This document shows positions 30,001 to 36,000 of a stretch of 64,000 nucleotides of DNA, piece by piece. Source of the DNA: Candidatus Hydrogenedentota bacterium (GTDB lineage: Bacteria; Hydrogenedentota; Hydrogenedentia; Hydrogenedentales; JAEUWI01); contig JAXMOL010000001.1 of NCBI GenBank assembly GCA_034669905.1, forward strand, positions 128,001-192,000, read 5' to 3'. The position numbers are program-made. How positions within the stretch are numbered: the stretch's first letter is position 1; every line of letters starts with the position of its first letter.

Positions 30001-33000
30001 ACCACTGTTCTGTTGTGCCTGGTATTGGTACTCGCAGCGATGTGGACACAGCGTCGGGCCTCGTCATCGTGATGTGAGGCGTGAGGTCAATGTCGGCCCG
30101 TGACCTTCACTCCTGAAAACTCCGGGGAGCACATGCGCGTGGCACATTCTGAAGGGTGCCCACTGCACCGATAAGCTCCAGAGCGGGCATCTATTCCGGG
30201 GCCATGACCGTGTGCCTGGGGTGAGTGCGTGGAATGCGCGGCACGGGTCGCGGGCGCCCTTTTGAGGGAGCAAGTGCTTCCGAGCCATTCTTACCGTTGG
30301 ACGCTCGACGCGCTGGGAAGATGGCCGAGCGCGCCCGGCCGCCCCGTCACCACACTTGCCAAAAGAAAGCAAACATTCCTGTTGTTTTTTATGCTTAACA
30401 GGTGTATACTTTCACAATTCTATGTTAACAACCACCCCATGCGACAAGAGGATTAAACAGGCGGGCACGTCGCACCCCACCCGGGAAGCCTCGGAGGAGT
30501 CCCCACCCCGGCCTTGAGACAATTGCGCTAACGGCCCGTGAAGCCTGGCGGCAGCGTCTTCCAGGCCCTATCACAAAACAACTACCCTCAAAAAAAGTAG
30601 CCGAGCCTGCGGCCACCCATTGCGATCCGGCAAGACTTCAATGGAATGGTACGTGCAGGCCCGACTGGGAGAACGTAATTATGAAGATCCAACGTGGATT
30701 CACGCTGATCGAGTTGTTGGTGGTTATCGCCATTATAGGCATTTTAGCCGCCATCCTTCTACCTGCCCTCGCCCGCGCACGGGAAGCCGCACGCCGCGCC
30801 TCCTGCCAGAACAACCTCAAACAGTGGGGCCTGGTCTTCACCATGTATGCCAACGAGAGTGAAGGCGAAACGTACCCCCGCATGCAGACCTCGTGGGAAG
30901 CCATCCATGACTGCGACACGGACACCGAGGTGTATCCGGCCGTCCCCTTCGTCGGCGCACCGACCCATTGGCTCAATCCCCAGTTTGATTCGGTCTACCC
31001 CGAATACCTCAGCGATGGGGGTATCGTGGTCTGCCCCTCCAATTCCAGCTGGAGTCCCGACGACTTCTTCCAGGGCGCCCGTGGCATCAATGAAGTCAGC
31101 AAAGTCTGCTTTGCGCCCAATCCCGGACCCAGCTTTGGCCAGTTTGACAATAAACGGGGCCTGGCCCAGGTGGCGGAAAATTATTTCTACACCGGCTATG
31201 TGCTCGACCAGGTCGATGATTTCTCGCCCCAGGAAGCCATTTCGGTCCTCGAACCAGCCTCCACGGAAACCGGTCCGGCCCAGCTGATCTGGACCATGAA
31301 CCTGGCCATTGGCCACTTCTTCGGCGACGTGGTCGGACAGGACATTGAGCTGGGCACTACGGCGCCAGGTGCGGGTAACGCAGGGGGCGACACGGTCTTA
31401 CGCCTCCGCGACGGCATCGAGCGCTTCCTCATCACCGACATCAACAACCCGGGTGCCAGCGCGCAGGCCCAGAGCACGGTGTGGGTCATGGGGGATCGAC
31501 TGAGCACCTATGCAGCCGAATTCAACCACATCCCCGGTGGGGCTAACGTGCTCTACATGGACGGCCATGTGGAATTTATTCGCTATGAAGACGCCGCCCC
31601 CGCCGTTTCGGGTGTCGCCAAGGTCTTCGGCGAGCTTTCCCTTCACAGCTAAGGACACCATCATGCATTACCCCTCCTTCTATCGCCTTGTCGGCTTCGC
31701 GGCCCTCTCAACCCTCATGGTGGCCCTGCCTGCCGCAGCAGCCCACCGGATCATCAGCACGGACGGCATTACCACCGAAATCCTGTTCGCGCTGGGCGCC
31801 GGTGATCAGGTGGTGGGCCGTGACTCGGGCTCCCTCTACCCGGAAGCGGCCGCCCAATTGCCCGATATCGGCTTGGGCCATCAGGTCAATCCGGAGTCGA
31901 TCCTCCAGATGAAGCCCACCATCGTCATCGGGCGGGATCGCCCCATGAGTCAGCCCGCTTTTCAGGTCCTGGAGTCTACCGGCCTGAAGGTCTTCCGCAT
32001 CCCCTCCGATCCCGGCCTGGATGTGGCCCGGAAGAATATCCGTACCCTGGCCAAATTCCTGGGTAAGGAAGACGCGGGCGAAGCCTTGATTGCCACGTTG
32101 AATAACGACGTGGCCAAGCTGGAAGCAAAGCAGGAGGCACAAAAGGACGTGGAGGCGCTGAAGCTTCTTGTGGTCTACCTCCGCCCCAACGCCACGCTCA
32201 TCATGGGCGAAGACAGCAATGCCACGGCGCTGGCCCACCTGGCGGGTGCCAAGAGCGCGCTGCCGGGCATCACGGGCTATAAGCCCCTTAATGCCGAGGC
32301 GGTGGTTCAGGCACAACCGGACGTTATCCTTTGCTACAAGAAGGGGCTGGAATCGGTGGGCGGACTGGAGGCCCTGTACAGTCAACCGGGCATTTCCGAA
32401 ACCCCGGCGGCGCGCAACAAACGCGTCATCGCCATGGATGATCTCCTGCTCGGTGGCTTTGGCCCCCGTAGCGGAGAAGCCCTCCTCGAATTGCACCATG
32501 CCCTCTACGACGTGGAAGGTCCCTATACAGGGAAATAGGACCTGCTCATGCTCCGTGGTAAATACAGATTCGCCCTGATTGCCCTGGGCATTTCCTTGCC
32601 CATTATCCTGGCGTTGGCCGCCGGTCTGGGCGCGTACTACATACCCCCATGGAAGATTCCATGGATACTTTGGCACCGCGCGGAGGAAGACGGTTATCGT
32701 GTCCTGGCTTACATCCGTTTTCCCCGCGTGGTGCTCGCAGCAATCGTCGGTGCATCGCTGGCCTGCTCGGGGGCCTGTCTGCAGGGGCTCTTTCGCAATC
32801 CCCTGGCCGACCCCCAGTTGGTGGGTGTCACCGGTGGTGGGGCCCTCGGTGCGGCCTTGTGGCTCATGTTTGTGAGTTCCCCCGTGCTGGGCATGTGGGG
32901 CCTGCCCCTGGCGGCCTTTGTCTCCAGCGCGGCAGTGGTTTTCCTGGTGTGGCTCATCGCCCAACGGACCCACGCCAATGGGATGGTGACCATCCTCATG

Positions 33001-36000
33001 GCGGGTATCGCGGTGAACAGCATTGCCTTCGCGATTATCGGACTCCTGACGACCCTGGCCGACAACGAAAAGTTGCGCAGTTTCACCTTCTGGCAACTGG
33101 GCAGCTGCGGCTATGCCACCTGGCCCCTTACCTTCTGGACCCTCGGCCTCTCGTGCATCGGGCTCGCGCTCCTGCTTCGGGCAGGCAACGCCCTGAATGC
33201 CTTGGCCCTGGGCACCACGGAAGCCTTCAACCTGGGCATCGCGCCCAACCGGGTAAAGCGCCAGATCATTCTGGGCTGTGCCCTGTCCGTTGGCGCGTCG
33301 GTGGCCGCATCCGGGGGCATCGGTTTTGTCGGACTGGTCGTACCCCACCTCATCCGCATTGCCGTGGGCGCCGATCACCGCTGGTTGCTTCCCGCCTCGG
33401 CATTGGGCGGCGCGTCGCTGCTCGTCCTCGCCGATCTGGGGGCCCGGACTATCGCCATGCCGGTGGAACTCCCGGTGGGTGTCATTACGGCGTTGGTCGG
33501 CGGTCCGTGGTTTGTATGGCTCTTGATTCGAACCCATAAGGAACACGCCTATGCTTGAGGCAAACGCATTGTCCTACCGCATTGGCACGAAGTTGCTCCT
33601 GGATGACTTTAATCTGACCGTCCATCCGGGGGACTTCGTGGCCCTCATCGGCCCCAATGGCGCGGGAAAATCCACGGCCCTCCGCTTACTGGGTGGCGAG
33701 CTACTTCCCGACAGTGGCACCGTCACGTTGGAGGGAGAAGGGCTTTCTGAACTGTCGCCCACCCAGTTGGCGCGAAAGCGGGCCTGCTTCCAGCAGAACC
33801 CTTCGGTGGACTACCCTTTCACGGTGCGCGAGATCGCCGACCTGGGGCGCCAACCCCATCGCCTCGGCCTGTTCGAAAGCCCCCATGACCGCCGTGTGGT
33901 GGACCAGTCCCTGGCGGCGGCGGGCATCACCCATCTGGAAGGCCGACTCCAAACGACCCTGTCCGGCGGAGAAGCCACCCGGGCCCATCTGGCGCGGGTG
34001 CTGGCCCAGGAACCCCGCCTGCTCCTGCTGGACGAGCCCACAAACCATCTGGACATCCACTACCAGCAGGAAATCCTCCAGGTTTGTCAGCAGCGTCGCC
34101 AGGAAGGCTGTGCCATTATCGCGGTGCTCCACGACCTCAACCTGGCCTCCCGCTTTGCCGACCAACTGGTGCTGCTCCACGAAGGGCGCACAGCGGCCCA
34201 GGGCACACCGGAAGAAGTCCTGACAGCGGCTTGTATCCACGACGTGTATGGCATTGAGAGCGTGGTCTGGAAACACCCCTGCGGGTGCCCCTGGGTCGTG
34301 CCCCTGTTGGACAGTCACCCCATTGAGACCCCAGAGGCCCTGCCCCTTGCAGCGGCCCATTAAACCCGTTCTAGCAGCGCCCCACCTAGTCGTCTGATTT
34401 AGACAGATGGGCTGGTATTTCCATGGTAGATCTTAGTTCATGACCGGAATTCCGTGTCGCCCTTATATTTCGGCGTCTCTGCGAAGGGCGATGGAACGGG
34501 CTTTCAGCCCTGTACGAATTTATTCGTCCCAAACATGGGGCGTTGCCCCATGCTGATATGCTTCCGGGCCGTTGGCCCTACAAAAGTCTTCCACCATGGA
34601 ACCAAGGCTGCTTCCATAGCGCCAAAGGCGTGCGACATACCAACCTGGGGCGAAGCCCCAGGAAACCAAGGTGTTAATTACGATAAGGGCTGAAAGTCCG
34701 ATCCAAGACGGTTAACAAAAACACCCACAACTTTCAATCAAATCATTTGGAAGCTATCGAAAGGAACACAAATATGAATACGGCAGAAGCTACCCAAAAC
34801 ACCCTGAGCACACGTTGGAACGCCTACCGGGCAGAACACCCGCGGGCCCGCATCTATGATGCCGCCATCGCACTCGAAGTCAGCGAAATGGAGTTACTCG
34901 CCACCGACTGCGGTGAAACGGCGACGCGCTTAAATGGCCCGTGCGGGGATATTCTGAAAGCCCTCGAAAAGGCGGGACCCATCATGGCCTTGACCCGTAA
35001 CCACTGGGCCGTCATCGAGAAGAAGGGGCAGTATAGCCCGGTCTCTTTCCACGGCCCGATGGGCCTCGTTTTGGATGAGGGCATCGACCTTCGCCTCTTC
35101 ATGACGACCTGGACGAATGCCTTCGCCGTCTACCACCCCAGCCACCCCCATTACAGCTACAGCATCCAATTCTTCGATGGCAGTGGCAGCGCCCTTCACA
35201 AGGTCTACCTGCCCCCGGAAGCATCGGGTGCCTGGCAGGACATTGTGGCCCAATTCAAGAGCGACGATCAGTCGAAAGAAGCGGAAGTCAGCCCGGCGTC
35301 CCCGGCGCCCGCCATCACCCCCGATGAGGATGTTGATCGGGAGGGCCTCCTGGAAGCCTGGGGCGCGCTGAAAGACACGCACGATTTCCACGGGATGTTG
35401 AAAAAGTTTGGCGTGGCCCGCACCCAGGCCATTCGCATGGCCGAGGGCACCTTCACCCGCCGCCTTCCCGTCTCGACGCACCGCACCATATTCGAGACGG
35501 CCGCGCAGGATGAACTCCCCATTATGGTTTTCGTCGGGAACAACGGCTGCATCGAAATCCACACCGGCCCCATCGAAAAAGTGCTGGAAGCCCGCGGTTG
35601 GTACAACATCATGGATCCCGACTTCAATCTTCATTTGCGCGAAGAGGGGATTCACGAAACCTGGCTGGTCCGGAAGCCCACCGAAGACGGCGTGGTCACC
35701 TCGGTAGAACTCTACGATGAGACCGGTAAGGAAATCGCCCAGATCTTTGGCAAACGTAAGCCGGGCATACCGGAATTGGACGCCTGGCGGACCCTGGCCG
35801 AGTCTCTCCCGGGACTCTAAGCCGAAACTGGCAGGGGTGGGAACGTGCAGCGGACCTGGTGCGAAGAGGCACCGTTGCACGTTCCCGATGATGCGCCGGG
35901 CAATGCCCCCCGGTGAATCGAGGCGAGAAACAGAACCTCGGCGGGGAACGAGGCGCACCTTGGGAAAACAGCGCCCCTGCGCGCGGCAGGGGCGAAGAAC

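Follow-up and report, generated by a model that had tools for sequence, protein, structure and literature searches.

How can cells enclosed by an outer membrane take up haem, or other large nutrients, without TonB? The question is raised by a haem-uptake operon in the window (the whole 64,000-nucleotide stretch analysed here, from the genome of a Candidatus Hydrogenedentota bacterium, denoted G000), in which the receptor position, at the head of the operon, is held by a gene for a prepilin-type protein with a DUF1559 domain. We analysed the operon and its leading gene against a comparison set of 135 genomes of the phylum; all coordinates are window positions.

The operon and its conservation in the phylum

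Domain and profile matches confirm the order DUF1559-hmuT-hmuU-hmuV-hmuS that the genome-wide survey's note had described (Table 1), and the parts of a HmuTUV-HmuS import operon were all found, namely a class III binding protein, a FecCD permease, a HmuV ATPase and a HemS protein. The gene order holds as far as hmuS, but this last gene is set apart here by a 410-bp gap that contains a dispersed repeat; in relatives, hmuV and hmuS are adjacent or overlapping (a gap of 49 bp or none), and the repeat is an insertion, outside the conserved operon.

Table 1. Features of the haem-uptake operon and its leader in the window
Feature	Position	Strand	Details
Promoter, sigma70-type	30382..30410	+	-35, 17-nt spacer, -10; operator-like spacer conserved
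Leader hairpin, conserved	30603..30662	+	5 nt upstream of ribosome-binding site 30668-30672
DUF1559 / H-X9-DG prepilin-type gene	30681-31652	+	323 aa; PF07963 + PF07596; TIGR02532, TIGR04294
His96 of the DUF1559 protein	30966-30968		clade-specific
His322 of the DUF1559 protein	31644-31646		clade-specific
hmuT, periplasmic haem-binding protein	31663-32538	+	PF01497; best PDB matches all haem-binding, E to 1e-48
hmuU, FecCD family permease	32548-33558	+	PF01032, E 5e-85
hmuV, ATPase	33551-34363	+	NF010068 haem ABC ATPase, 282.9 vs cut-off 261
Dispersed repeat between hmuV and hmuS	34386..34745	none	59 blastn matches in G000, up to 92% identical
hmuS, HmuS/PhuS cytoplasmic haem-binding or haem-degrading protein	34774-35820	+	PF05171 twice; PhuS, E 1e-91

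A close HmuT is encoded in 9 of the 135 genomes, G000 included (E < 1e-83; the next match is at 4e-21), and an orthologous DUF1559 gene lies directly upstream of hmuT in 8 of the 8 others. The claim that the leading gene is kept wherever the operon is found, which had been based on 3 of 3 other genomes, is thus confirmed and stronger than first reported; the identity range of the orthologous leading proteins, given before as 66-79%, widens to 61-79% over the eight genomes, and the nearest paralog in G000 is 52% identical, as claimed. One genome (G065), in which hmuU-V-S stand at a contig end and neither the clade gene described below nor a close hmuT was found, was excluded from the counts, and we read the two missing genes as an assembly gap. 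A HmuT search over all GTDB genomes returned the same 8 loci of the phylum only, with patterns so strict that it is uninformative on other phyla.

In HmuS, His203 aligns with His209 of PhuS, which we take to be a haem ligand. The HmuT protein does not have the Tyr ligand known from its Yersinia and Shigella counterparts and is probably of the His/Tyr type, with His73, Tyr172 and Arg174 as its putative ligand set: these residues have the same 99-residue and +2 spacing as His141, Tyr240 and Arg242 of the Corynebacterium glutamicum HmuT (PMC4926363), and 3 of 3 mutants of the latter score below wild type against the profile of the clade HmuT proteins, with the aligned stretch lost in the Y240A and R242A chains.

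The earlier finding that G000 has no TonB receptor was borne out, as PF00593, PF07715 and PF03544 have no match in this 95.7% complete genome, i.e., neither a TonB receptor nor TonB was found, and the leading protein itself, which lacks PF00593 and PF07715, is not a TonB-dependent haem receptor. Omp85 is encoded in G000, which hence has an outer membrane, and so are a prepilin peptidase (PF01478, at C69), secretins (7 matches over the cut-off) and secretion/pilus gene clusters. The haem-receptor model TIGR01785 exceeds its cut-off in 0 of the 135 genomes. TonB-dependent receptors occur elsewhere in 5 of the 9 hmu genomes; the two named by the survey's note were G034, for which this holds, and G009, in which none was found at E ≤ 0.001, although genome numbering may differ. 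Nine receptors were checked: the best match of seven is the TOL_0244 type, whose gene neighbours are YfiR-like and sensor genes, and a haem-receptor cut-off is passed by none of the nine. Beyond these nine, receptors adjoin TonB in G071 and G073.

A second haem-binding partner and a shared promoter signature

In comparisons of sequence and gene order, the window gene was shown to belong to a clade of orthologs that stand directly before two unrelated kinds of haem-binding gene and that share a promoter signature and histidines. The clade comprises 27 genes in 26 of the 135 genomes, as a rule one per genome, of which 23 lie directly upstream either of hmuT (9) or of a RhuH-like gene with the domain DUF6607 (14). 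Conversely, the phylum has 24 close hmuT and DUF6607 genes, and a clade gene lies directly upstream of 23 of them. The two partners never occur in one of the 135 genomes together, and a RhuH homolog was not found in G000. In a metagenome set, downstream sequence was available for 7 in-clade loci, and in 6 of them hmuT or a RhuH-like gene follows, although for some of these loci the DNA is that of genomes already counted.

DUF6607 matches the haemophore RhuH (PDB 8XJC) at E 1.2e-51. Haem is bound in RhuH by His96, Arg143, Tyr144, Arg170 and Gln198 (PMC11967795), and the motifs containing His96, Arg143/Tyr144, Arg170 and Gln198 are present in 15 of 15 DUF6607 proteins, with variation at the Arg183 position. 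The survey's note had set against a haem role the close homologs of the leading protein in 'non-haem' contexts; this objection falls, because those homologs mostly precede the RhuH-type haemophore gene. Among five plasmid records from other phyla, four have the DUF6607 gene beside one for a TonB-dependent receptor and the fifth does not, and in Sphingomonas and Novosphingobium a TonB-dependent receptor precedes the RhuH-like gene, so that in Sphingomonadales a TonB haem receptor holds the position taken by the clade gene in this phylum. A second, signal-peptide-bearing type of HemS, found in 5 genomes, is not headed by a clade gene.

Of 25 clade genes, 22 have the promoter signature upstream, and both haem contexts are represented among them. 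With a matrix built without G000, the window site is the top match in that genome (33.6 bits, the next being 23.2); a plain consensus scan had missed it because the -35 element matches in only 3 of 6 positions, and a scan with the operator spacer only gave 1889 matches and was uninformative. Genes of the Fur and DtxR families are present in G000, and no regulator was assigned to the operator-like box. The leader hairpin was found in 9 of 9 hmu operons and has no Rfam match. Compensatory changes occur in 12 of its 19 pairs, a number reached by 0 of 500 shuffles, the structure being derived from the same alignment. A hairpin common to all DUF1559 genes was rejected, as it is present in a single copy in G000; a cobalamin-riboswitch or BtuF operon was rejected too, with no Rfam match in the window and a separate BtuF-like locus at C16 (labelled by eye).

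The leading protein and its candidate role

The protein carries a class III signal (Gly6|Phe7...Glu11, with Glu at +5, and a hydrophobic helix) and passes the curated cut-offs of PF07963 (37.6/21.2), PF07596 (43.5/23.3) and TIGR04294 (28.5/19). Of the clade proteins, 84 of 85 have His96, against 6 of 31 next relatives and 0 of 47 G000 paralogs, and a histidine within the last five residues, here His322, is present in 83 of 85, 7 of 32 and 6 of 47, respectively; outside the clade, co-occurrence of the two was not significant (2/166, p = 0.07). The clade also keeps a set of aromatic residues missing from the paralogs. An AlphaFold2 model built from 150 sequences (pLDDT 92) has a helix at residues 9-59 and a predicted pilin-like fold, with a further part of ~190 residues inserted within the pilin core. 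Its 20 best structural matches comprise pilins and pseudopilins exclusively, albeit as weak matches (best Z 4.7, rmsd 3.3, 96 residues aligned), and Foldseek gave no match to the model at E ≤ 0.001. A predicted complex of the globular domain, HmuT and two haems scored 0.00, with no contacts, and weighs neither for nor against an interaction.

The suggestion that the protein, in its receptor position, probably captures substrate is thus supported by the gene context and by the conserved histidines. On balance, and with moderate confidence, we favour the reading that it is a haem-binding pilin that acts in the first step of uptake. Against it count the relatedness of the genomes compared, the 4 of 27 clade genes and 1 of 7 metagenome loci that no haem-binding gene follows, the TonB-dependent receptors in 5 of the 9 hmu genomes, the HemS type without a clade gene at its head and the weakness of the pilin matches. 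That one paralog of a large family landed before hmuT by chance and was inherited along is conceivable in view of the few independent evolutionary events on which the haem link rests, because on the clade tree the hmu label can be explained by as few as 2 changes and the RhuH label by 3. Such a chance neighbourhood is nevertheless very improbable and largely refuted: the ortholog stays the same in spite of 35-45% divergence and changing flanks, the clade has a further haem partner unrelated to the first, and 0 of the 30 out-of-clade DUF1559 loci in the metagenome set stand before hmuT or a RhuH-like gene. The pairing in the window is above chance, because ~48 of the 5301 called genes of G000 are of the DUF1559 type and the window gene has the shortest same-strand downstream gap among these paralogs (10 bp, the next being 30 and 97).

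Membership of an iron-starvation regulon with another ligand (iron, a siderophore or a tetrapyrrole other than haem b), the gene staying in place by providing or sharing a promoter, would be in line with the promoter signature, which scores as well at the two nearest paralogs, whose neighbours are DUF4198 and PepSY genes, with the inferential assignment of the HmuT ligand set, and with the 4 of 27 clade genes that are not followed by a haem-binding gene (neighbours: CbiX and PepSY; PepSY; a DUF1559 paralog with CbiX upstream; an aldo/keto reductase), as well as with a sister gene that adjoins CbiX and HemE. We hold this to be rather improbable, since in six families the clade gene stands first, followed by either of two unrelated haem-binding proteins, HmuV exceeds a haem-specific cut-off, HmuS is a close PhuS homolog, and both histidines are missing from the two nearest paralogs. 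Ligand binding is not needed to explain a tight link to haem genes, and modular pilins acting as adhesins are known (PMC8179133), so the protein might instead serve as an adhesin or a docking subunit for haemoproteins, cell debris or the haemophore, or as a sensor, with haem crossing the outer membrane by other means. This, too, seems unlikely: the clade keeps one set of His, Trp, Phe and Arg residues in both contexts, although HmuT and RhuH are unrelated in fold, and a shared small ligand fits this better than a shared protein partner.

The haem-binding pilin that we favour would be the outermost component of a haem pathway in outer-membrane bacteria without a TonB haem receptor. Iron starvation would turn the operon on and prepilin peptidase would cut the protein after Gly6, leaving the globular domain to face outward from the inner membrane and to hold haem through His96 and His322; haem would then be handed to HmuT, imported by HmuUV and handled in the cytoplasm by HmuS. 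The least certain step is the crossing of the outer membrane. The crossing that we prefer, which carries about half of the weight of the explanation, would place the pilin on one of the type II secretion or type IV pilus machines encoded in the genome, with extension and retraction through a secretin, although a 320-residue pilin may be unfit for a filament; alternatively, the protein would stay in the inner membrane as a relay and haem would arrive by another route. We put forward haem import by way of a pilus and secretin, replacing TonB, with considerable doubt.

Relation to known systems and implications

The hmuRSTUV, hemRSTUV and phu loci of Proteobacteria likewise combine homologs of HmuT, HmuU, HmuV and HmuS in one operon, but they have a TonB-dependent receptor, whereas the G000 operon has none and starts with a prepilin-type gene. 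Similarly, clade orthologs in 14 genomes precede a homolog of RhuH with intact haem residues, as known from RhuH-RhuR-RhuA of Riemerella anatipestifer (PMC11967795; 8XJC); in that system and in the receptor-DUF6607 pairs of Sphingomonadales and Cytophagales the neighbour is a TonB receptor, whereas here it is a pilin-like protein. The HtaA/HtaB-HmuTUV system of Corynebacterium (PMC4926363), in which a capture protein anchored in the membrane presumably supplies a His/Tyr-type HmuT with no need for TonB, resembles the arrangement proposed here, but capture there is by a CR domain, and here it would be by a pilin fold in an organism with an Omp85-type outer membrane. Modular minor type IV pilins such as PilB of S. 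sanguinis and GspK share the class III signal, a pilin core, which is predicted here, and an added module on which a binding site could lie, as far as the accessible part of PMC8179133 describes them; unlike in these, the extra part of the window protein is placed within the predicted pilin core, and the ligands named in that part of the source are proteins, carbohydrates and DNA, with no nutrient cofactor for import among them.

The DUF1559/SBP_bac_10 (PF07596) and H-X9-DG (TIGR04294) paralogs of Planctomycetes have the same signal, the same terminal motifs and a comparably large expansion, with at least 41 per genome in Planctomycetales according to PMC8567305 and ~48 in G000. The accessible portions of the literature on them speak of 'solute-binding' or unknown proteins, and we found no ligand or pathway assignment there; nor did our literature searches find anything published on a haem role for the DUF1559 clade. 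Tentatively, DUF1559 prepilins may be interchangeable, ligand-specific subunits of a TonB-independent import system for the outer membrane, each loaded on a machine of the type II secretion or type IV pilus kind, binding its nutrient outside and being drawn back through a secretin; the clade would be the haem subunit, and the family as a whole would take the role that TonB-receptor repertoires have in Proteobacteria and Bacteroidota.

Few paralog families of Planctomycetes and related bacteria are as large as DUF1559, and the clade gives it a concrete, testable job. It also offers an easy entry, with a coloured ligand, two candidate ligand residues, a confident model and two downstream acceptors, and the 52%-identical paralog, which lacks His96 and His322, provides a natural negative control. 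A haem-binding pilin, if true, would be a new class of haem-capture protein, and import by a pilus, if true, would be a new route across the outer membrane.

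The haem operon and the receptors of the phylum

Five plus-strand genes fill positions 30681-35820 (see the table). The first two gaps measure 10 bp and 9 bp, genes 3 and 4 overlap, and the 410 bp ahead of gene 5 contain a dispersed repeat, absent in relatives. Named relatives assign the organism to Candidatus Hydrogenedentota. Among 135 genomes of that phylum, we identified a close HmuT in nine, including that of the window. The genome-wide survey's note had placed a DUF1559 prepilin gene in the position of the TonB receptor before hmuTUV, an order said to be kept wherever the operon was seen in the phylum, and this held in all eight other genomes, where the same ortholog (61-79% identical) lies directly upstream of hmuT and is followed by hmuU and hmuV. 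The hmuS gene lies downstream on the same contig in seven of the eight, and in G084 on a second contig, behind the remainder of hmuV. The operons come from four genera of two families, their flanking genes vary and the complete unit occurs in only two of nine genomes of the window's genus, which indicates that prepilin and transporter genes move together.

Features in the window and at other loci (positions without a contig (C) or locus (L) prefix count along the window)
Feature	Position	Strand	Remarks
Leader hairpin	30603-30662		just 5' of the ribosome-binding site
Prepilin-type protein	30681-31652	+	323 aa; PF07963, PF07596, H-X9-DG motif
Class III binding protein (HmuT), gene 2		+	best solved relatives are haem-binding proteins
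FecCD permease (HmuU), gene 3		+	
ATPase (HmuV), gene 4		+	exceeds cut-off of haem-ABC model NF010068
Two-domain HemS protein (HmuS), gene 5		+	PhuS match, E 1e-91
Dispersed repeat, ~360 bp	34386-34745		between hmuV and hmuS; dozens of partial copies in genome
Probable outer-membrane barrel gene, then two multihaem cytochrome genes	19322-22738		8 kb upstream of operon; barrel without Pfam match
Second DUF1559 gene	22911-23900	-	
His-rich small ORF, RAPP end	24014-24496	-	just before second DUF1559 gene; three more such pairs in genome (C12, C19, C60)
Two nearest paralogs	C17:43401-45223; C14:31815-35343		promoter signature; DUF4198-, PepSY- and MipA-like neighbours (by eye)
CbiX-like chelatase genes	L131:9774-11183; L139:2329-2958; L140:8018-8629; L148:5678-7778		repeatedly adjoin clade and a sister gene; HemE once alongside
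Cas9-, Cas1- and Cas2-like genes (by eye)	L135:521-4913		G071; just 5' of clade gene
HemS with apparent signal peptide	L081:1040-2527; L082:13424-14554; L083:9777-10907; L084:2134-3264; L085:9631-11088		five genomes of window's genus

A profile search of the window's genome (95.7% complete) gave no match to a TonB-receptor barrel, plug or TonB, and two Omp85 genes. Across the phylum, PF00593 matched in 43 of 135 genomes, among them five of the nine with hmuT, and the haem-receptor model TIGR01785 passed its cut-off in none of the 135; from an incomplete assembly such a gene may simply be missing. Of nine receptors classified, none passed a haem-receptor cut-off and seven matched the TOL_0244 type best (four over cut-off; L086, L087, L089-L092, L094). 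These adjoin YfiR-like and sensor genes, and some of their genomes gave no match to TonB; a role in signalling is therefore suggested. TonB exceeded its cut-off in nine of 135 genomes, four of them with a gene of the haem-linked prepilin clade; the receptors that adjoin TonB in G071 and G073 are not among the nine classified. With a pilin-like protein at its head, this operon represents a genuine, conserved and hitherto undescribed variant of the haem-uptake operon; the protein is no TonB receptor and probably takes on some of that receptor's work.

A second haem partner of the prepilin clade

A search restricted to the variable region, with no more than 26 candidates scored per genome, identified 26 genes at E ≤ 1e-45, from 25 genomes (next match 5e-22); a contig-end fragment from G074 brings the clade to 27 genes in 26 genomes, and the 25 complete genes form one branch (support 94/93). 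The next gene is hmuT in 9/27 and DUF6607 in 14/27 (two read across or at contig ends). In the remaining four, the next gene is CbiX, together with PepSY, in G094; PepSY at the second G103 copy; a paralog in G059, where CbiX lies upstream; and an aldo/keto reductase in G048, whose DUF6607 gene lies elsewhere. Outside the cytoplasm, the CbiX-like chelatases may either remove iron from haem or insert it. Fifteen of the 135 genomes carry DUF6607, and none of these has a close HmuT. Of eight in-clade metagenome loci, some of them the same DNA as genomes already counted, one is followed by hmuTUVS, five by a RhuH-like gene, one by neither and one by a contig end; neither neighbour was found at 30 out-of-clade DUF1559 loci, many with short flanks.

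DUF6607 matches RhuH (PDB 8XJC, E 1.2e-51). RhuH is secreted and under Fur regulation, it binds haem via His96 (Kd 3.4e-11 M) and its gene adjoins that of a TonB-dependent haem receptor (PMC11967795). The His96, Arg143/Tyr144, Arg170 and Gln198 motifs of RhuH are kept in 15/15 phylum copies; judged by these likenesses, DUF6607 is a haemophore family. In plasmid records, an annotated TonB haemoglobin receptor lies 14 bp upstream of DUF6607 in Sphingomonas, a receptor-like ORF (by eye) precedes it in one Novosphingobium and not in a second, and a receptor plus HmuY diverge from it in Bernardetia and Fibrella. Since DUF6607 thus appears as a haemophore encoded next to a receptor in most of these records, the close prepilin homologs that the survey's note had counted against its proposal as 'non-haem' are mostly confirmations: here too the prepilin stands where a receptor would, in a haem module unrelated to the first.

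Shared signals and residues

A sigma70-like promoter whose spacer is conserved lies upstream of 22 of 25 clade genes and is seen in both haem contexts. When the window's genome was scanned with a matrix trained on clade upstream regions, this genome being excluded from the final matrix, the top site was that of the haem operon. Hits 2, 4 and 6 belong to the two nearest paralogs, which have DUF4198 and PepSY genes as neighbours. We infer iron control of the operon from its genes. The leader hairpin covaries, is present in 9/9 hmu operons and had no Rfam match; its invariant outer stem is matched in the leaders of five other clade genes (L129, L131, L139, L142, L143). The central loop motif looks reversed (by eye) in non-hmu clade leaders; the interior of the hairpin may be flipped there, or the motif may act at the DNA level.

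In HmuT of the window, His73, Tyr172 and Arg174 are invariant, and the Tyr found in the Yersinia and Shigella proteins is absent. C. glutamicum HmuT uses His141, Tyr240 and Arg242 (PMC4926363); the spacing, 99 residues and then +2, is identical in the two proteins. All three alanine mutants of that protein scored below wild type against the clade HmuT profile, and the Y240A and R242A chains lost the aligned stretch; these indirect comparisons fit a His/Tyr haem site.

An AlphaFold2 model of the prepilin from 150 sequences is confident (pLDDT 92, pTM 0.87). Each of the 20 best structural matches to it is a pilin or pseudopilin. The scores are low, the highest being that of EpsG (Z 4.7, rmsd 3.3, 96 aligned), which fits a pilin core carrying a large insert. 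Clade-specific residues (in at least 90% of 85 clade proteins, and in less than 30% of near relatives and of the genome's paralogs) include Trp72, Phe90, His96, the Pro148-Gly-Pro-x-Phe152 loop, Phe213/214, Arg273 and Phe316. His96 is present in 84/85 clade proteins vs. 6/31 near relatives and 0/47 paralogs, and a His within the last five residues in 83/85 vs. 7/32 and 6/47. A haem pocket would require two histidines, aromatics and an arginine, and these residues may form one.

Proposed haem capture and the wider DUF1559 family

We consider it slightly more likely than not that the prepilin captures haem directly. Iron limitation would induce the operon, the prepilin would be cleaved by prepilin peptidase (its gene is present), the outer domain would bind haem and hand it to HmuT, HmuUV would import it and HmuS would receive it. 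Within direct capture, we divide the weight about equally between delivery by a secretion or pilus machine and a fixed inner-membrane relay; the genome has seven secretin matches over cut-off, and secretion/pilus gene clusters. A haem-related role without haem binding is unlikely, and another iron-related ligand slightly less likely again; chance neighbourhood is very improbable. The clade-specific residues are alike whether the partner is hmuT or a RhuH-like gene. The two nearest paralogs may serve as receptors for iron or metals from other sources, and they provide natural controls. Non-independence is the chief weakness of the haem link, since two changes on the tree account for the hmu label and three for that of RhuH.

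A second HemS type has dioxygenase-like or ApbE/PepSY neighbours; two copies exceed the others by ~110 aa, and one of these two has weak EF-hand matches. Export, to which the apparent signal peptide points, would be unusual for a HemS protein.

The literature searched, with most subscription journals and supplements outside it, gave no haem link for DUF1559/SBP_bac_10/PF07596/DUF6607; where described there, DUF1559 has no assigned function or is a generic solute-binding family. The genome has four called short ORFs that carry a metal motif and end in R[AG]PP; three of them, and one uncalled ORF, lie just before DUF1559 genes. The RAPP-ending ORF of the window resembles CruR/DUF2946 leaders, which in Proteobacteria often lie 5' of TonB receptors (PMC9426467). 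Of the best-scoring 30 cobalamin riboswitches in the phylum, five lead directly into a prepilin gene (L190, L194, L195, L210, L216) and many others into secreted proteins; none of the four in the window's genome lies at a DUF1559 gene. Other paralogs precede phytase-like or PepSY genes (by eye; phytase confirmed at one G103 locus). Taken together, these leaders, riboswitches and neighbours fit, short of proof, a receptor-like role across the DUF1559 family.
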